DNA of 64,000 bases. It comes from an uncultured bacterium. Lineage in GTDB: Bacteria > Chloroflexota > UBA5177 > JANWHV01. Below the pieces are notes generated by a model. That model was not told the origin of the DNA. It searched no databases and saw only the letters and a program-made list of their open reading frames with translations. This document shows positions 32,984 to 41,960 of the stretch, in pieces; positions within the stretch are counted from its first letter, which is position 1; every line of letters begins with the position of its first letter. The stretch is taken from assembly GCA_963729625.1 (NCBI GenBank), contig CAVSOU010000007.1, positions 288,001 to 352,000 on the forward strand, in the 5' to 3' direction. A program made the position numbers and the translations under genes.

Positions 32984-33428
32984 CTACAGCCCGGTGCTGC
33001 CAAACCCACCGCGACTCGGTGCGTCCATAGTCTGGACTTCGTCCCACTCGGCTCGGTCGACGCGGACGAAGATGCCCTGGGCGACACGCTCGCCTCGGCG
33101 AACGCTTACAGGAGCCTGAGTAAAGTTGTAGACCTGACACAGAATCTCATCGCCATCACCGCAGTAATCCTGGTCGATAACACCGATTCCGTGCGGCACT
33201 GAGAGGCCTTTTCGGCGAGCCGTCGAGCTTCGGGCGGTCACCACGAGCATGTAGCCAACCGGCGTGGCTACAGCCACGCCCGTCGGGAGCAGAGCAACCT
33301 GTCCGGACCCGACAACCACATCCTCACGGCAATAAAGGTCGAAACCAACCGACCCTGGTGACGAGTATGCGGGCAGGGGCAGGTCAGGATCGAATCCGGC
33401 GGATGCGAACGACCAGGTTCTCAGCCAT
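32984..33428 (-). pseudogene. dut: dUTPase with a 1-nt insertion near 33393 (true frameshift or assembly error)
   Basis: MAENLVVRIRR in one frame; DPDLPLPAYSSPGSVGFDL...GVIDQDY...RGGFGSTG in the next. Confidence 0.88.
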
Positions 33429-34257
33429 GGGGCAGTATGATGCCACCGGAGCTAACGGGACCGCTGGATTGAGAGAGAGGACGGCCATAAGGATCGACGA
33501 GGCCGGATGGGCGCTGAACCGGCGGCGGCGGCGAATCTTCCGCTTGAGCACCAAGGCGCGTGGCGATCTCGATGAACCGCTCCGTAATTGCCTTCGCAGG
33601 GACGCCATACATTTCCGAAAGCTCATCGAGGTCCGGCTCAAGGCCGTCCAGAGCCAACACCGACATGTGCACGGCGGCGGCCCAGATCCGCACATCGCCT
33701 GCGAGGACCTGGTCTTCGCGAAGCGCTCTCCAGAAGCGGATACCTTGCTCGAGCATGTGCAAGCCAAGATGGTCGGACTGCAGACCACCGATGAGCAGCT
33801 TGTCCCCCGCTTCCAGCTGCTCAGGATGCAGGATATCGAGCTGAGCCTCGCCGTTATAGAACATCACTGTTGGCTCAAGAATGACGTCAACACTGAAATC
33901 GAGGTCCGCAGGCACGGGCCAGATATCGTCGATCTTCCAAGTGCCGCGCTCGGACGTCAAGACGACCGTGCTGACGGACACGTCGTCGCCATTCTCGTTA
34001 CGACCACGAACCTCGGCGACGGCCAAATCGTCCCCTATCTCCGCCATTGAGAGGCCAACTTGCTGGGGATTCGCAGCAAGGCCCAGGGGAATGCCGATAG
34101 CGCTCATGCCGAACAGCGAGAGCCCTTCACGTTTGAGGCTCTTCGCAGACAACAATTGGAGCACCGCGGGTACGTCGTCGTGCAGCACCGCGTCGATCAG
34201 GGCCGTAACCGGCGCAACGACCGGCGCGACTTGCGCCTCTTCCTGGCGTGAAGACAT
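33421..34257 (-). CDS. Hypothetical acidic protein
   Basis: 278-aa ORF overlapping the dut start; no motif recognised. Confidence 0.75.
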   Translation of the reverse strand: MSSRQEEAQVAPVVAPVTALIDAVLHDDVPAVLQLLSAKSLKREGLSLFGMSAIGIPLGLAANPQQVGLSMAEIGDDLAVAEVRGRNENGDDVSVSTVVLTSERGTWKIDDIWPVPADLDFSVDVILEPTVMFYNGEAQLDILHPEQLEAGDKLLIGGLQSDHLGLHMLEQGIRFWRALREDQVLAGDVRIWAAAVHMSVLALDGLEPDLDELSEMYGVPAKAITERFIEIATRLGAQAEDSPPPPVQRPSGLVDPYGRPLSQSSGPVSSGGIILPHG

Positions 34258-36101: not shown

Positions 36102-37088
36102 CTAGCAGCCTATCTCGATGTCTCGTAAGACCATCAGCAGGAAGGCATGTGAGGGAGCGAACTGGCGCCCGACAGTCACCCTGAGCTCGGCAATAGCTTC
36201 GTCGGGATCTCGAGGCTCACGGTAGGGGCGGCCCGATCGAATTGCTTCATACGCGTCGGCAAGGCCGATCAGTTGAGCATGCAGCGGGATAGCGCCGCCG
36301 GAAAGGCGGTCAGGATATCCCGTGCCGTCCCATCGCTCGTGATGATGGCGGATGGCCGGGGCGAGGTGGGCAAGGCTCGCTACCCGCCGAATTATGCGAT
36401 CTCCGGCGGCCGGATGGATCCGCATGGAAGTCCACTCTCCGTCGGACAGGGCCGCGCGTTTGCGAAGCAACTGGTTGGATACACCTATCTTGCCTATGTC
36501 ATGCAGCATTGCCGCCGTCTCGAGCGCAAGCAGAGCAGGGGGTTGAAGGTCCATGGCGCCGCCAAGACTCGTGACGAGCCGCCGTACAGTGTAGCTGTGT
36601 CTGGCTGTGGCCGGCTCGTGAATTTCGAGCATTTGCATCATCGCGTCAGCCGCTTGCTGGACGCTTTCGAGACGCCCGAATGAAGCGAGCAGCAGCGCGC
36701 GCACATGCGCAGCGTACGCTCTCGCCAGCGACACGTACTCGTGCTGGCTGGCCACGTATCCATGGTCATACAACAGAACCAGCGCTCCGCGAACACCGTA
36801 CACGGGTCCAATTGGTGACGCTGCCAACCCGGGCTGGCTCACGCACTCACCGCGCTCGAGCGCGTGCAAGGCATGCGCCCGCCAAGCGCTCAGGTGACCG
36901 CGCCCAGCAGTCAGATCCGCGAGATCGCCCTCCTGGGAAGCGATCAGGACGCGTGCTCCTATCCCGGCATCCGATGCGTCATCAAGGATCGCTTGGAGAG
37001 CAGGCCGCAGCAGCGGGTCGCACTCCCAGAGCGATCTGCTTTCGTGTGTCGCCCGTCTAGCCGGCGACAGCCTCGCGACATGTGGCAT
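36102..37088 (-). CDS. HD-GYP cyclic dinucleotide phosphodiesterase with degenerate GAF-like N-terminus
   Basis: HSYTV, MLHDIGK, HHERWDGTGYP, ADAYEAI, RPYR; GGGAGGG RBS. Confidence 0.9.
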   Translation of the reverse strand: MPHVARLSPARRATHESRSLWECDPLLRPALQAILDDASDAGIGARVLIASQEGDLADLTAGRGHLSAWRAHALHALERGECVSQPGLAASPIGPVYGVRGALVLLYDHGYVASQHEYVSLARAYAAHVRALLLASFGRLESVQQAADAMMQMLEIHEPATARHSYTVRRLVTSLGGAMDLQPPALLALETAAMLHDIGKIGVSNQLLRKRAALSDGEWTSMRIHPAAGDRIIRRVASLAHLAPAIRHHHERWDGTGYPDRLSGGAIPLHAQLIGLADAYEAIRSGRPYREPRDPDEAIAELRVTVGRQFAPSHAFLLMVLRDIEIGC

Positions 37089-37311
37089 TGGTCGAAGCCC
37101 TCCCGTAAAGACGCGGCAACAAGATGGTTGCAAACGTGCGCAGATCGCGAGCCTGGATGTCAGCCACCATCGCTGCATCCTTGGGCGAGAGACCAAACTT
37201 CAGTGCCGTGGCACGGGGGTTGCCGAGCAGGTCTGCGCCAAAAGAATGATCGACCGCAGCGGTTCCAATGAGACGCTCAAACCCTGCGTGCAATGTTGGA
37301 TGAGGAGCCAT
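37057..37311 (-). CDS. Small NHLP/Nif11-leader-like protein (84 aa)
   Basis: ERLIGTAAVDHSFGADLLGNPRATALKFGLS resembles the A..D..F...LL.NP...L...GL leader pattern; GAAAGGG RBS. Confidence 0.72.
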   Translation of the reverse strand: MAPHPTLHAGFERLIGTAAVDHSFGADLLGNPRATALKFGLSPKDAAMVADIQARDLRTFATILLPRLYGRASTNATCREAVAG

Positions 37312-37339
37312 GTGTCAATGCCCTTTCAGTTCTCGCCGA

Positions 37340-37657
37340 TTACTGGTGCGCCACGTGAAGAGGCCGGCCGGTGATGCCGCTGGCGCTGCTGAGTTTGGCG
37401 TGCAGAGGTCGCCCGGTGATGCCGCTGGCGCTGCTGAGCTTGGCGTGCAGTGGGCCGCCGGTGAGGCCGCTGGCGTTGTTGAGCTTGACGCGCAGTGGGC
37501 CGCTGGTGATGCCGCTGGCGCTGTTGAGCTTGACGTGCAGTGGGCCGCTGGTGATGCCGCTGGCGGTCGCGTGGACCTGCGAATCGGCGTTGACGGCAAC
37601 GGTACAGCCCGCGGCGAGAACGATCGCGACGGCAAGACCTCGCATTGCGCGAATCAT
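37340..37657 (-). CDS. Secreted precursor with five tandem 15-aa repeats (105 aa)
   Basis: AGAGGAG RBS; signal peptide MIRAMRGLAVAIVLAAGCTVAVNA; repeats of type ASGITSGPLHVKLNS. Confidence 0.85.
   Translation of the reverse strand: MIRAMRGLAVAIVLAAGCTVAVNADSQVHATASGITSGPLHVKLNSASGITSGPLRVKLNNASGLTGGPLHAKLSSASGITGRPLHAKLSSASGITGRPLHVAHQ
37352..37565. repeat. 45-bp coding tandem repeat, about 4.7 copies
   Basis: GTGA(T/G)GCCGCTGGCG recurs at 37371, 37416, 37461, 37506 and 37551. Confidence 0.95.
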
Positions 37658-37868
37658 GGCAAGATACTCCTCTAGGACTAATGTTCCAAACCAAAGCAAA
37701 GTTCACTGCCTGAACATGGTCTGACAGACACGCCGTACCCACATCGGCTCACGTGTGACCGCCGCTAGCTGCAGCCACGGCCGGATAGCAAAACCAACCC
37801 GGAATGATACCAGGACACTACTCGTCTGTTCGCGCCCACAGACCCGCAATATCGGCGGCCAAGTGACA

Positions 37869-37874
37869 TATAAT
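37869..37874 (+). promoter_or_regulatory. Candidate -10 box for the STAND-BTAD gene
   Basis: TATAAT in GC-rich DNA about 110 nt upstream of 37987; no clear -35. Confidence 0.35.
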
Positions 37875-37986
37875 AGCTGTGGCCGTAACCGCGCCCTCGA
37901 AACCTGGTCTGGCCACTTGCCGCCGTAGGCAGGTTAGCACAGGGACCCTGAGCGCACCCTGAGACGGTTTCAGGAGAGAGTAGCCC

Positions 37987-40900
37987 GTGGCAGTCGGCGA
38001 CGTACCCGGCAATCCACCCTGGTCCACGGCAAAAACGCGCGTCCCCATGCCGCGAATCCTCGTGTCGCGGCCGCGGCTGATCCATCCGCTGAACCTCGCC
38101 GCGACGTCCGGACGCGTCACGCTGATCGTCGCCCCCGGCGGCTCCGGGAAGAGCTCCCTGGTGGCAGACTGGACGCGACAGGCGTCGATGCCGGTTGCAT
38201 GGTATACGGTGGATGCCGCGGACCGCGACATACGCCGGCTGGCCGCGGGACTCTGCGGCGCCATCGCCCGCGTGTTGCCGGGGGTCGCAGATGCCGCGTT
38301 TCGCGCGATCGACAGCGGAGCGACTGAAGTCGCCGCAATCGGCCTGCTTCTGGACCGGCTCGAAGATCACTCGATAACCCTCGTACTGGACGACTTCCAC
38401 CATCTTGACGGCTTACCAGAGGCCACGGCCCTGTGGGAACATTTCTTCCGCTTCAGGCCGCCGACCATGGCGCTCACCATTCTCTCGCGCACGGTGCCGA
38501 TCTTGGGCTTTGCCATGCTCGCCGCGATGGACGCCCTGCTGGGCTTGGGACGCACGGACCTGAGCTTCGCGCTTGACGAAGCAGCTGAGTTACTTGCTAA
38601 GCATGGATTGGATCCGGCGCCGGCCGCTCAGTTCGTGGCGCGCACCGACGGTTGGGCGACCGGTCTGCTCATGCTTGCGCGGTCCGCTCCGAGCGGGGTT
38701 CGCCAGCTCCACGTGAGTGTGGACACGCTCATGGATCAGCTCGGAGCCGAGCTCCTCAGCTCGTTGTCGCCCGACCTTCGCACGTTCCTGCTCGAAAGCG
38801 CGTCGCTGGGGCCTGTGACAGCCGATGAGGCAGACGAGATTATCCAACACACTCGCAGCCAGGCCCTGTTCGCGGACATATTGCAACGCGGGCTCTTCCT
38901 CACCAGGGACGGTACGACATATCGCTACCACGACCTCTTCGCCGATTACTTCATCGCAGTCCTGCGCGCCGAGGCGCCTACCAAGCTGCGTGCCATCCGC
39001 GAGCGCGCCTCCGCGTACTGGTGCGCTCAGGGAGACTTGCCTCGCGCGCTAGGCCTGCTGGCCGACGACGGCAACTGGCGGGCGCTTGCTTCCCTGCTCG
39101 AATCGCAGAGAGGTGCGCTGTGGGATCAGGCAATGTGGGGAACAGCCATAGACATGGTCGATCGCTTGCCGGAGAGCCAGCGAACGCCGCGCGTATTGGC
39201 GTTAAGTGCAGCGTGTCATGCCTCACGCGGTGAATATGCCCTCGCCCTGTCACGTGCCGACGCCGGAATGGCGGCCGCAAGAGACGAAAGCGAGTGGCTT
39301 AGCTGTGCCGTAACGCACGCAGATACGTTGCACGGCGAAGGCAGGCTCGAGGAATGTTCGCGGAGCGCCGAAGCCGCTCTTGCCGTCGCACGGCAGATTG
39401 GGCATGCTGCGGCGATAACCCGTCTCCTTAGCTTGCGGGGCCGCGCTCGGCTGGGTCTCGGTATGACGGAGGCAGGTATGGTTGACATGGCGGCGGCGCT
39501 GGACGCCCACGCTGCCGATCGAGACGTGGATGCGGAGGCCATCACGCTCTACAACCTGGCTTTGAGCCTAACCGAAGCCGGTCGCTGCACGGGATGCGAC
39601 GAGTATTTTGCACGTGCTGCGGCAATCTGGAGCCGGAAGGGTGACATGCAGCGGCTCGCGGCAGTGCTTAACCTTCGCGCAATCCATCAGTGGCAAACCG
39701 GCAACCTGCGGGCAGCCGAGGAGGATGCTCGCGCGGCGTTGTCGACACTCGGCGAGGCCGGTTCCCCACTCCGGGCCTGCGAGATCATGGCTACTTTGTG
39801 CATCGTCTGCGCCGAGAAGTCAGACATCACCGAGGCCGAGAATCTCGCTCCTAGAACCATCGAGCTGTGCGAGCGCGTCTATGCAGTTGCAGCCGCGAAT
39901 GAAGCGAGGCGGTCGCTCATTTGGTGCGCGCTGGTGCGACGCAATCGCTCCGGTACCAGGCAACTGATTGAGGACGCCCGACAACAACCCCTCACACCCA
40001 CGGACTCGGCGTTGCTTGACGTGCTCGAAGGTACGCTCGCGATCCGTGCGGGCGCTTATGCGCGAGCGGCCGACGTGCTTGGCGACGCCGCCCACAGACT
40101 CGAGGGGCTGCAGCGGCCTCAGTACGCGGCCCGTGCGCTGATACTTCGCGCCGAGGCGCTCTTGGCAGGTGGCTCGGTCAGTCGCGCCGAGGAGGCGTTG
40201 AATCACCTGGCGACGCTGGTCCTGCCATTGGGGTGCGACGGCTTCCTACGACCCGTAACGCGCATGACGCGCCAGGTCCTCGCCGAGCGGCAGATCTTGC
40301 GAAAGCTGCGGAGAGATACGCGGGATTTGCTGGAGCAGCTAGCCGCCGGGACACCAACGCTGACCGTTGTGACGCAGTCACGCAAGTCGGAAAGCGCGCC
40401 GCCGCTTCTACGTGTCTCACCATTTGGCCCGGGTAAGCTGTACTTCGACGGACGCACCATCGACGCAACCGCCTTGCCGCCGCGCGCACGTGAGGTACTA
40501 TGCTTTGTCACACACCAGAAGGGTTCGGCCGAGCGCAACACGCTCGTGGAGACCATCTGGGAGGGCGACGTGCGCGCGGCTCAGTCGCTCTGGGATGCGA
40601 GCCGGCACATTCGACGGCTGCTCGGGGAGCGGTACTGGACGACTCGCGGCGGGACGTATCGCTTGAACCTCGTGGTGAATGACGACGCGATCCAGGTTGA
40701 CGCAGACGTGGCTGCCATTCAGGGAACTGGTACCGACATCGAGAAGCTCGCCGCAGGCGAGCGTGTACTCGAGTTGATACAACCGGGCGCTTTCATGGAG
40801 TGGTGTGGAAGCCTCTGGGCAACGGCACTCCGCGCGCACTACGGTCAGCTTGCGCTATCGGCGGCCCTAGCGACCGCGGCGCTGTACGATCGGTTGGGGC

Positions 40901-41166
40901 GCGCGATGGAGGGTACCTCGACGCTGCGCCAGGCCATCGCTATCGACCCCCTTGACGAGCGTCCACGCGAAGCCCTGGTTCGCTGCCTGAGCGCCCAGGG
41001 GTTAGTGCAGCAGGCTGTCGATGAGTACCGTGCGTACCGCGCCCTGGTCCAGCAAGAGCTCGATGAAGAGCCTTCGCCGCAATTGCGGCGTTTGGTAGCG
41101 CGCCTGGGCAAGGCCATCGGGCAGGATGGCGACCCCGCGTCGGGCCCGCCTCGCCGGAGCCCATGA
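37987..41166 (+). CDS. MalT-like STAND NTPase - TPR - wHTH - BTAD transcriptional regulator
   Basis: APGGSGKS Walker A, LVLDDFH Walker B, TDGWATGL, YRYHDLF, TPR-like helices, C-terminal DPLDE...ELDEEPSP; GGAGAG RBS. Confidence 0.9.
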   Translation: MAVGDVPGNPPWSTAKTRVPMPRILVSRPRLIHPLNLAATSGRVTLIVAPGGSGKSSLVADWTRQASMPVAWYTVDAADRDIRRLAAGLCGAIARVLPGVADAAFRAIDSGATEVAAIGLLLDRLEDHSITLVLDDFHHLDGLPEATALWEHFFRFRPPTMALTILSRTVPILGFAMLAAMDALLGLGRTDLSFALDEAAELLAKHGLDPAPAAQFVARTDGWATGLLMLARSAPSGVRQLHVSVDTLMDQLGAELLSSLSPDLRTFLLESASLGPVTADEADEIIQHTRSQALFADILQRGLFLTRDGTTYRYHDLFADYFIAVLRAEAPTKLRAIRERASAYWCAQGDLPRALGLLADDGNWRALASLLESQRGALWDQAMWGTAIDMVDRLPESQRTPRVLALSAACHASRGEYALALSRADAGMAAARDESEWLSCAVTHADTLHGEGRLEECSRSAEAALAVARQIGHAAAITRLLSLRGRARLGLGMTEAGMVDMAAALDAHAADRDVDAEAITLYNLALSLTEAGRCTGCDEYFARAAAIWSRKGDMQRLAAVLNLRAIHQWQTGNLRAAEEDARAALSTLGEAGSPLRACEIMATLCIVCAEKSDITEAENLAPRTIELCERVYAVAAANEARRSLIWCALVRRNRSGTRQLIEDARQQPLTPTDSALLDVLEGTLAIRAGAYARAADVLGDAAHRLEGLQRPQYAARALILRAEALLAGGSVSRAEEALNHLATLVLPLGCDGFLRPVTRMTRQVLAERQILRKLRRDTRDLLEQLAAGTPTLTVVTQSRKSESAPPLLRVSPFGPGKLYFDGRTIDATALPPRAREVLCFVTHQKGSAERNTLVETIWEGDVRAAQSLWDASRHIRRLLGERYWTTRGGTYRLNLVVNDDAIQVDADVAAIQGTGTDIEKLAAGERVLELIQPGAFMEWCGSLWATALRAHYGQLALSAALATAALYDRLGRAMEGTSTLRQAIAIDPLDERPREALVRCLSAQGLVQQAVDEYRAYRALVQQELDEEPSPQLRRLVARLGKAIGQDGDPASGPPRRSP

Positions 41167-41354: not shown

Positions 41355-41960
41355 ATGAAGCAGATCTCGGTATTGCTGGCGTTCTCCTCGCCTGCGCTTC
41401 ACGCGAGGATCCGATCGGAAGTGCTACTGCAGCCTGAGCTGGCCCTCCTGTACGATGCGAAAACCCCGGGAGAGGCTGTCGCCCAGACTGCGCACCACCA
41501 GCCCCAGGTCGTCTTGTGCGATCGCGGCATGCTTGCCGATGGCCAGATGAACGCGATCGCGCAACAGGCACGTGTCGTCTCGCTTCTTATTCTCGTGACC
41601 ATGGGTGTGGAAAGTGCTCCGGTGCGGGTACCTGTTCCGGTCGCAGGGGTCATCCCGTCGAATCATCAACCCGGTTCCCTGGCAGAGAAGCTCCAGGCAA
41701 TCATGGACGCGCCATCGTCGTTCATCGAACCGTCTGTTCGCCTATCCAAGCACCTTGCACCGCCATCCGAGCGCATCAAGCTTGAGCCAATGAGTTACGA
41801 TCCCGGTCGAATCCCCAGTCTGCCGCGCTCGGGCCGGCTTACGTGGCTCAGCGACCAGCAGCGTGCTTCGTCGCCTCCAGGGCCGACAGATGCTCAGGAG
41901 CTTGCGAAGAAGCCGTTCATGAAGTCCATCTTCGATCCGCCGACCGGCTCCCAAGATTAG
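41355..41960 (+). CDS. Atypical receiver-domain protein with Pro-rich tail
   Basis: ISVLLA...GEAVAQTAHHQPQVVLCD REC-like pattern; no HTH. Confidence 0.65.
   Translation: MKQISVLLAFSSPALHARIRSEVLLQPELALLYDAKTPGEAVAQTAHHQPQVVLCDRGMLADGQMNAIAQQARVVSLLILVTMGVESAPVRVPVPVAGVIPSNHQPGSLAEKLQAIMDAPSSFIEPSVRLSKHLAPPSERIKLEPMSYDPGRIPSLPRSGRLTWLSDQQRASSPPGPTDAQELAKKPFMKSIFDPPTGSQD

Follow-up and report, generated by a model that had tools for sequence, protein, structure and literature searches.

A candidate peptide-signalling cassette with a STAND-SARP receptor-regulator in uncultured Chloroflexota

The DNA analysed here is a 64,000-nt stretch, hereafter the window, of contig CAVSOU010000007.1 (positions 288,001 to 352,000, forward strand) in the assembly GCA_963729625.1 of an uncultured Chloroflexota bacterium (UBA5177; JANWHV01). 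Positions 36102-41166 of the window hold a STAND ATPase gene on the plus strand and, divergent from it, three closely packed genes on the minus strand that encode a repeat-containing precursor with a signal peptide, an NHLP-like protein, and an HD-GYP protein. We describe these four genes as a candidate cassette for peptide signalling between cells. The source genome (5.4 Mb, 21 contigs, 87% complete) contains the NHLP-like gene and this STAND gene once each. The genes are located as follows.

37987-41166, plus strand: STAND gene (receptor and regulator), 1059 aa, GTG start behind AGGAGA
37340-37657, minus strand: repeat precursor gene, 105 aa, from the ATG behind GAGGAG
37057-37311, minus strand: NHLP-like gene, 84 aa
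36102-37088, minus strand: output gene (HD-GYP), 328 aa, from the ATG behind GGGAGGG

The precursor and NHLP-like genes are separated by 28 nt (37312-37339), the NHLP-like and HD-GYP genes overlap by 32 nt (37057-37088), and the divergent spacer between the precursor and STAND genes spans 329 nt (37658-37986). A purine-rich ribosome-binding sequence precedes each of the four starts. This layout, with its gap, overlap, spacer, and individual ribosome-binding sites, had been proposed in a preliminary description of the DNA, and every element of it was re-found at the same coordinates.

The cassette was recovered from 47 further loci, comprising 9 in the genomes of four sister species and 38 on metagenome contigs (L and G numbers below denote loci and genomes, respectively). 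When the NHLP-like protein was used as a query, hits were obtained in 5/41 related genomes, i.e., that of the window and all four sister species of its genus, and in none of the 36 genomes that represent other genera of this class and phylum. From a collection of 5.8 billion proteins, a profile search that scored the 8000 candidates with the most words in common retrieved 42 NHLP-like relatives (at least 38% identity in 41/42 with identity reported), and the source label of one of them reads 'Chloroflexota bacterium'. The genus loci are either orthologous (L011, L012, L004, and L005) or paralogous (L013, L014, L017, L015, and L016) to that of the window. All nine of them have a small open reading frame (ORF) followed by the NHLP-like gene, eight have the divergent STAND gene (the contig of L012 ends first), and the gene after the NHLP-like one encodes an HD-GYP protein in seven and a receiver domain in two. 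Among the 38 metagenome loci, the STAND gene was present in 35, the other three contigs starting 118-417 nt before the NHLP-like gene; the HD-GYP gene in 37, L110 ending 271 nt past the NHLP-like gene; and a signal-peptide ORF in 37, L121 being too short for one. The precursor and STAND genes point away from each other in the window and in the 8 genus and 35 metagenome loci that reach the STAND gene. Wherever the contig allows, signal-peptide and NHLP-like ORFs thus flank the STAND homologues, with the HD-GYP gene next to them except in the receiver paralogue, and the linkage suggested in the preliminary description held.

The outer neighbours vary by locus and include fumarase (in the window), ClpB, glycosyltransferases, glutamate-cysteine ligase, and a response regulator. 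Because these outer genes differ among 11 loci and the window flanks, the four genes constitute the unit, whose constant core is the STAND, precursor, and NHLP-like genes, with the fourth gene as a swappable output. The wider Os1348 family, represented in 167/401 genomes of the phylum at E ≤0.001 (82 above the cut-off; 0/14 controls; the tally takes in the four unpublished genomes G018, G055, G226, and G271, on which nothing else reported here depends), showed no HD-GYP or STAND neighbour in the best 30 phylum loci (tblastn) or in 13 same-class loci. The linkage was accordingly rejected as a trait of the whole Os1348 family. A search of 185,579 species genomes with the STAND alignment yielded 39 loci with distant MalT-like genes (22-34% identity, mostly N-terminal), at which neither HD-GYP or NHLP-like neighbours nor the C-terminal module were observed. 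Since the wider Os1348 family and the distant MalT-like loci lack these partners, the cassette is confined to a narrow lineage.

The precursor of the proposed signal (37340-37657, minus strand) begins with a 30-residue signal peptide ending at VHA, followed by five 15-residue units. Tandem Repeats Finder reported a 45-nt unit in 4.5 copies at 37362-37565. Each unit contains the core S-G-[IL]-T-[SG]-[GR]-P-L-[HR], and the candidate peptide would lie inside the unit SASGITSGPLHVKLN. Among the 47 loci we obtained 36 distinct precursors, and in 26 of these a string of 4 or more residues recurs exactly. At all loci the precursor N-terminus consists of a basic stretch, usually with RR, and then 12-20 hydrophobic residues. 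The cores, present in 2-7 copies, are the same or nearly the same within a precursor and sharply different between loci. We found GGLYQD (4 copies), GGILE (3), GIIYQD (3), and AGTIVEL/I (3); AGNIFEL, AGGITEY, AGTIYEF, AGGHYEFG, and AGGVIDFGKV (2 copies each); TVVGPGPL (4), TIVGPDPL (2), AGIPGSGPL (5), and YPGGGPV (3); and the SGITSGPLH type of the window (5) and GGANGGPLA (7). The cores of the L100-L116 group and of its closest relatives each follow a conserved ..TH.T[VI]Q-AG context. The final core copy often reaches the stop codon, which sets the C-terminal boundary of the core, and certain copies abut directly (GGLYQDGGLYQDGGLYQD); both features point to a functional unit of approximately 5-10 residues. 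Judged from these repeats, the anatomy of the precursor is that of multi-copy pheromone propeptides. A conserved cysteine at precursor position 18 (37604-37606, minus strand) follows small residues in the window lineage (AAGC, SASC, TTGC, and VVSC) and resembles a lipobox; no such cysteine is present in the paralogues or the L101 group.

The STAND protein was modelled with AlphaFold2 (AF2) from an alignment of 20 homologues, resulting in a mean pLDDT (predicted local distance difference test) of 84. According to the model, it is composed of the following parts.

Residues ~29-330: NOD
Residues 331-788: helical/TPR repeats
Residues 788-803: disordered linker
Residues 807-912: wHTH
Residues 917-1045: BTAD
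40399-41121, plus strand: C-terminal SARP module (OmpR-type wHTH and BTAD), the DNA-binding output, from phmmer, Foldseek, and Pfam

The NOD part consists of a nucleotide-binding domain and a helical/winged-helix lid and extends to about residue 330. It contains Walker A (GGSGKS, 51-56) and Walker B (LVLDD, 132-136) motifs, and G52, G54, K55, V133, and D135 are invariant in the 20 homologues. The MalT model NF003420 matched residues 24-739 with E 8e-48 and 163 bits (equivalog cut-off 537), and AAA_16, AAA_22, and TPR_12 gave Pfam matches below their cut-offs. The top Foldseek matches of the model were MalT (8bob_C) and then the STAND-TPR protein 6mfv_A. The C-terminus is a wHTH plus a BTAD and not the LuxR-type HTH of MalT. 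Pfam placed the BTAD at residues 942-1039 (49.9 bits; cut-off 22.1), and residues 791-1059 matched the SARP domain of AfsR (8hvr_I) in phmmer with E 5e-4 over fragment residues 15-251, i.e., across both sub-domains. Foldseek related the SARP module to 8k60_I and 8hvr_I with TM scores of 0.77-0.78 normalised to the target, at 24% identity. The module occupies residues 805-1045, behind the NOD and TPR parts, and is not N-terminal as in small and large SARPs; in the model, the domain order NOD-TPR-SARP is that of the AfsR blocks reversed. The protein is not a 250-500-aa RRNPP receptor, since it has 1059 aa and the folds matched are those of MalT, STAND proteins, and AfsR.

The variation of the receptor is concentrated in one part of its TPR sensor. 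We compared seven full-length STAND alleles of the L101-L115 group, which are 87-93% identical overall, in 40-residue windows. The amino-acid divergence was 0-0.04 at residues 133-308 and 617-790 and rose to 0.35 at residues 444-500. The zone of raised divergence, about residues 410-615, corresponds to eleven predicted helices in the N-terminal half of the TPR array and is listed here with the part that follows it.

39214-39831, plus strand: hypervariable TPR patch, residues 410-615, proposed peptide-specificity region (allele divergence)
39835-40356, plus strand: C-terminal TPRs, residues 617-790, where the receptor varies least among the close alleles

Three partial alleles were added, giving 10 alleles and 45 pairs, for which the identities inside the patch and elsewhere in the receptor were as follows.

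Same core GGLYQD (L102/L109, the sole such pair of the 45): patch 96.6%, elsewhere 93.1%
GGLYQD versus GIIYQD (2 pairs): patch 91.3%, elsewhere about 93%
AGTIVEL versus AGTIYEF: patch 84.0%, elsewhere 93.9%
AGGHYEFG versus AGTIYEF: patch 82.0%, elsewhere 93.9%
Remaining 40 pairs: patch 65-79%, elsewhere 92-99%

L100 and L105, with the cores AGGHYEFG and AGTIVEL, respectively, are 99.1% identical outside the patch at a synonymous divergence (dS) of 0.06, and 76.7% identical inside it at a dS of 0.88. Among distant pairs, those with similar peptides showed no surplus divergence in the patch (identity 90% versus 88-91% for L130/L131; 60% versus 50-63% for L126/L135), and those with different peptides did (57% versus 74-80% for L118/L123; 59% versus 67-78% for L133/L101). 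The co-variation of peptide and TPR region postulated earlier is therefore visible, with divergence focused in residues 410-615 and tracking peptide identity, although the corresponding Mantel test was not significant (see below). The NHLP-like protein, its tail included, and the HD-GYP protein are about 90-95% identical over the same alleles, so specificity would be set solely by the peptide and the TPR patch. Both nonsynonymous divergence (dN) and dS are higher in the patch, and dN/dS is unchanged, which argues for old alleles that persist and are reassorted by recombination, in the manner of pherotype loci. Co-folding of TPR residues 331-790 (20-row alignment) with precursor residues 75-105, which cover its final two units, gave ipSAE values of 0.15 and 0.22 (mark 0.32); this control-free run weighs neither way on binding.

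The C-terminal TPRs diverge by 0-4.5% in amino-acid sequence over residues 617-790, with zero divergence in two windows covering 672-731. This invariance suggests a conserved partner surface, for which the NHLP-like protein is a candidate.

The divergent spacer carries a candidate promoter that fits the output module of the regulator.

37946-37963, minus strand: SARP-type box, direct heptamers CTCAGGG-TGCG-CTCAGGG with an 11-nt period, conserved across loci
37931-37936, minus strand: -10-like hexamer TAACCT, 9 nt past the second heptamer and preceded by TGC, conserved as TAnnnT
37658-37930, minus strand: operon leader of ~270 nt, from the candidate promoter to the precursor start, with a terminator-like hairpin inside

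The whole element, CTCAGGG-TGCG-CTCAGGG-TCCCTGTGC-TAACCT (37931-37963, minus strand), is oriented towards the peptide operon. All orthologous loci have two heptamers with an 11-nt period, 9 nt, and TAnnnT (often with TG before it) beside the STAND start, and yCAGGr-N6-yCAGGr occurs at the same place in relatives whose STAND protein is only 44-50% identical to that of the window. The pattern CAGGR-N6-CAGGR-N9-TANNNT was found once in the window (0.02 expected from shuffles) and once in the 5.4-Mb genome, and its reversed control was not found there. The paralogues have boxes of their own, namely, with the 11-nt layout retained, GGAACGG twice, 9 nt, and TAGTCT in L014 and GGAACGT twice and then TATTGT in L017; and CCCAAC twice with a 10-nt period and then TGC-TACGCT in L015 and L016. 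The same promoter comparison revealed no clear box in L013. A study on SARPs describes their targets as direct repeats 11 or 22 bp apart, the 3' repeat lying 8 bp from the -10 (PMC10936776); the heptamer-to--10 spacing is 9 nt in the register used here. Because the promoter fits this published rule, the STAND regulator very probably activates the adjacent operon and, judged by this pattern, little else, and the proposed control of the divergent genes by their regulator finds support in the conservation of the box. A stretch of 23 nt separates the box from the start codon of the STAND gene, and the leader of the STAND mRNA must therefore cross the box. The terminator-like hairpin of the operon leader (37798-37814, minus strand) has a T-rich run behind it and could be an attenuator or a product of chance; the L101-group leader, of ~50 nt, does not contain that region. 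An Rfam scan of 37300-38100 returned nothing relevant.

The NHLP-like protein accompanies the cassette throughout. Its gene was present in every module found, either directly before the output gene or overlapping it, and the protein is ~95% conserved across alleles with different peptides. The score of the window protein against NCBIfam NF038399 (Os1348 family of the NHLP clan) was 36.1 bits, just under the cut-off of 40, and that of the G001 orthologue was 41.7 bits. A profile of 10 homologues matched 6lk7_A (85 residues, 'nitrile hydratase, alpha chain'), which we take, as an unconfirmed identification, to be the Os1348 crystal structure, with E 4e-4, and also matched nitrile hydratase alpha subunits. 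The window protein ends in AVAG; 7/10 aligned homologues end in ..AG and an eighth in ..AGS, with no core behind. The ORFs that flank the module in the window and at 11 loci included no maturation enzyme or peptidase-domain ABC exporter. Because it ends at the expected cleavage position of a nitrile-hydratase-type leader, is core-less, and has no maturase or exporter nearby, the protein is not an ordinary precursor of a ribosomally synthesized and post-translationally modified peptide. As a bare idea, it might dock on the C-terminal TPRs 617-790 or on the output protein. A fusion of the NHLP-like and HD-GYP proteins in the paralogues was considered and rejected, as the two occupy separate frames that overlap or are adjacent.

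The output protein is composed of the following parts.

36102-37088, minus strand: GAF-like domain at residues ~20-110, long helix, and HD-GYP phosphodiesterase domain (Pfam, AF2, and Foldseek)

Its HD-GYP assignment is firm, given 113.9 bits to Pfam HD_5 (cut-off 27.2) and intact motifs; H164, HD196-197, H225, and HHHE.W.G.GYPDRL (248-262) are invariant in 15 homologues except for D254 (≥90%). In the AF2 model (pLDDT 86), a small alpha/beta N-terminal domain and a long helix precede the catalytic domain. The best full-length fold match was the HD-GYP protein 4mcw, and 4r8z and 9rbz matched as well; GAF domains gave weak fold matches to the N-terminal part. The nearest solved enzyme by sequence is the cGAMP-specific phosphodiesterase 5z7c, followed by enzymes acting on cyclic di-GMP (c-di-GMP). 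The genome-wide search yielded 20 GGDEF, 9 HD-GYP, and 22 SBP_bac_5 (oligopeptide-binding family) matches, which argues that a c-di-GMP network and a capacity for peptide uptake are present. In L015 (6559-7098, minus strand) and L016 (3181-3723, plus strand), a lone receiver domain of 180 residues (Response_reg, E 1.5e-22) replaces the HD-GYP protein. The slot for the output gene is thus exchangeable, with the NHLP-like gene staying in place at both loci.

Several further observations concern the surroundings. Two ORFs beside the cassette, at 41355-41960 (plus strand, 201 aa) and 33421-34257 (minus strand, 278 aa), matched no Pfam family; they are kept in the orthologous locus of G001 (76% and 67% identity, respectively) and are absent from the paralogous and metagenome modules. 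The HD-GYP gene of L103 (8224-9275) and the STAND genes of L110 (48-1900) and L132 (1258-4303) are each in two pieces in different frames, reflecting either frameshifts or assembly errors. Beside the Os1348-family genes of other genera of the class, an ABC1 atypical kinase was encoded at 6/13 loci (L050, L052, L053, L055, L059, and L060), and a PMT_2 glycosyltransferase and PAP2_3 were often nearby (Pfam, 44 ORFs). These neighbours make up another setting in which the family recurs.

At the level of sequence comparison we regard five features as established, namely the gene order, the cores that are both repeated and hypervariable, the receptor patch whose hypervariability matches theirs, the promoter of SARP type, and the intact catalytic motifs. 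We hold it reasonably probable that these features together represent a self-contained cassette for peptide signalling between cells, which would operate as follows. The first gene of the operon would yield a propeptide that is exported via its signal peptide and cut outside the cell into copies of one short peptide, of ~5-10 residues judging from the relatives and lying within SASGITSGPLHVKLN in the window. The peptide would be re-imported, probably through one of the many oligopeptide permeases, and would bind to the STAND ATPase in the cytoplasm, in the N-terminal half of its TPR sensor. Ligand binding would release an ATP-dependent switch, as expected from MalT and other STAND switches, and the SARP module would then bind both heptamers, which stand in place of a -35, and bring RNA polymerase to the operon promoter. 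The consequences would be positive feedback on the peptide and induction of the NHLP-like protein and the GAF-HD-GYP enzyme, the latter hydrolysing c-di-GMP or a related cyclic dinucleotide. We infer the export, cleavage sites, uptake, binding, sign of regulation, c-di-GMP hydrolysis, and any role of the NHLP-like protein in this scheme.

Some results weigh against this interpretation. The Mantel test relating a crude peptide similarity to patch identity gave rho 0.23 with p = 0.065, which is not significant (rho was -0.14 for the same peptide score against the rest of the receptor). The 10 alleles are related and their pairs non-independent, and their similar accession prefixes indicate that they may come from one sequencing project. 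The dN/dS ratio of the patch is about 0.1-0.2, the same as outside, and these 10 alleles give no signal of positive selection. Single cores only were found in 10/36 precursors, and the signal peptides were called by eye and a hydrophobicity scan only. The cysteine in the hydrophobic stretch could constitute a lipoprotein signal in the window lineage, where the propeptide may be lipid-anchored before release. At L137 (5539-8735), a tandem second, partial module has STAND and NHLP-like genes with no evident signal-peptide ORF. No protease, exporter, or importer linked to the cassette was found in the flanks of 11 loci and the window. Finally, no RNA datasets were listed for 36102-41166; five DNA datasets were, with small shares.

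The precursor might also give rise to a secreted peptide product, bacteriocin-like or for the matrix, in which case the STAND-SARP protein would be a pathway-specific activator with another ligand and the NHLP-like protein a precursor or helper. SARPs are typically cluster-situated activators (PMC10936776), and the Os1348 prototype lies beside acetyltransferase, peptidase, and SagB-like genes, with antibiotic activity declining when it is lost (PMC7726476). Pfam also matched Frankia_peptide weakly, which points the same way. However, within ~4.5 kb at the 11 loci we found no maturase, peptidase-ABC exporter, or immunity gene, and the NHLP-like protein ends in ..VAG, is core-less, and does not change along with the peptides. 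A secreted product would also leave unexplained why a patch in the sensor of the regulator varies together with the peptide core, and a product that induced its own synthesis via this sensor would amount to signalling anyway. We therefore consider this alternative unlikely.

The signalling interpretation itself allows for the opposite sign, in which the peptide switches the STAND regulator off, as with Phr/Rap and AimP/AimR, and the operon is on at low and off at high cell density. The sign of regulation is not fixed by sequence, and both activated and inhibited types are known among cytoplasmic TPR peptide receptors. However, in characterised STAND transcription factors such as MalT the sensor ligand activates, and auto-inducing loops are usually built with the precursor gene at the head of the operon that is activated. 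Activation by the peptide is favoured over inhibition in our judgement, and the switch-off scheme as a whole seems improbable. An Avs-like anti-phage STAND system, with a TPR patch that tracks phage proteins and with the small genes and HD-GYP protein as effectors, is very improbable. In its favour, Avs3 (8dgc_A) is among the Foldseek matches of the STAND model (E 4e-8), and defence STANDs commonly have hypervariable sensor regions. Against it, the PADLOC system models matched none of the four proteins (the HD-GYP protein is only weakly similar to Cas3 models, E 7e-5 to 2.5e-3), the output domain is of the transcription-activating kind and a promoter that fits it precedes the neighbouring operon, dN/dS in the patch is low, and hypervariability is otherwise seen at the locus in the secreted peptide of the cassette itself.

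Returning to the signalling cassette with an activating peptide, the stronger claim is that it represents the first family of ribosomal-peptide quorum sensing with an NLR-like STAND receptor and the first peptide signalling in Chloroflexota. Such a family would combine a Sec-exported multi-copy propeptide, a pheromone of 5-10 residues, a hypervariable TPR patch, a SARP output, old coexisting alleles, wiring to c-di-GMP, and an obligatory core-less NHLP protein that possibly docks on the C-terminal TPRs or the output enzyme. We give this complete picture about an even chance. The preliminary description had named no described system of such composition, and none was found in our literature search, which covered titles and abstracts with subscription journals outside its scope. 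Within that literature we found no peptide signal that has a STAND or SARP protein as its receptor, no peptide quorum sensing in Chloroflexi, and no system combining NHLP and HD-GYP proteins. Peptide quorum sensing through cytoplasmic receptors is regarded as a trait of Bacillota and phages based on RRNPP proteins, and screens for it limit the size and family of the receptor. If our interpretation is correct, the logic of a propeptide and an intracellular TPR receptor arose independently, on the scaffold of immune sensing in plants, animals, and bacteria. For STAND regulators like MalT and AfsR, a ligand encoded by a gene would become available, so that their activation could be studied easily with synthetic peptides and natural alleles, and a little-studied phylum would gain social signalling tied to c-di-GMP. 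Orthogonal induction modules could, moreover, readily be drawn from the natural pairs of peptide and receptor alleles.

Each part of the cassette resembles a known system in some respects and departs from it in others. Os1348 of Pseudomonas sp. Os17 is reported to be an 85-residue, six-helix homodimer encoded beside GNAT/acetyltransferase, peptidase, and SagB-like genes (PMC7726476). The NHLP-like protein is likewise of 84-85 residues and, by profile similarity, of the nitrile-hydratase-leader clan; unlike Os1348, it is encoded next to a secreted peptide, a STAND regulator, and an HD-GYP protein, and other Chloroflexota members of the family have different neighbours again. AfsR and other large SARPs of Streptomyces contain the same three blocks and act on 11-bp direct repeats over the -35, 8-9 bp from the -10 (PMC10936776). 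Unlike the order NOD-TPR-SARP found here, theirs is SARP-NOD-TPR, and AfsR is modulated by phosphorylation. To our knowledge, no peptide ligand of AfsR has been reported. MalT of E. coli shares the NOD and the helical-repeat sensor, and the same course from ligand through an ATP-dependent switch to transcription is expected here. The ligand of MalT, in contrast, is maltotriose and its C-terminus is a LuxR-type HTH, whereas the present regulator ends in a wHTH and BTAD and has an apparent partner in an encoded peptide.

Diffusible signal factor (DSF) signalling via RpfC/RpfG in Xanthomonas ties a cell-cell signal to an HD-GYP phosphodiesterase and hence to c-di-GMP. Unlike the cassette, whose enzyme would be controlled by transcription, it relies on a fatty-acid signal, a membrane kinase, and an HD-GYP protein activated by phosphorylation. 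The arbitrium system, AimR-AimP-AimX, is a compact set of receptor, propeptide, and effector, with a hexapeptide from the C-terminal end of the propeptide and many specificity types. The cassette is a similarly compact receptor/propeptide/effector unit; unlike its receptor, AimR consists simply of TPRs and an HTH and is inactivated by the peptide, and arbitrium is without an ATPase or a cyclic-dinucleotide enzyme.

Together with arbitrium, the closest likeness is to RRNPP(A) and Rap-Phr systems, in which a small secreted propeptide gene lies beside the gene of a cytoplasmic TPR receptor, an arrangement recognised here from sequence. Some Rap-Phr systems have tandemly duplicated pheromone propeptides (PMC11343458), and these share with the cassette several pheromone copies per propeptide and the joint diversification of peptide and receptor into specificity types. 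Unlike RRNPP(A) systems, the receptor of the cassette is a 1059-aa STAND ATPase with a SARP module, the host belongs to Chloroflexota and not to Bacillota, and the operon has two extra genes, for the NHLP-like protein and for an HD-GYP or receiver protein. The size window of RRNPP_detector is given as 250-500 aa (PMC10075063), and RRNPP-type screens of this kind would miss the cassette because its receptor is twice the allowed size. On this comparison we rate the logic as a known one, that of RRNPP-type quorum sensing, and the receptor class as one that would be new to it.

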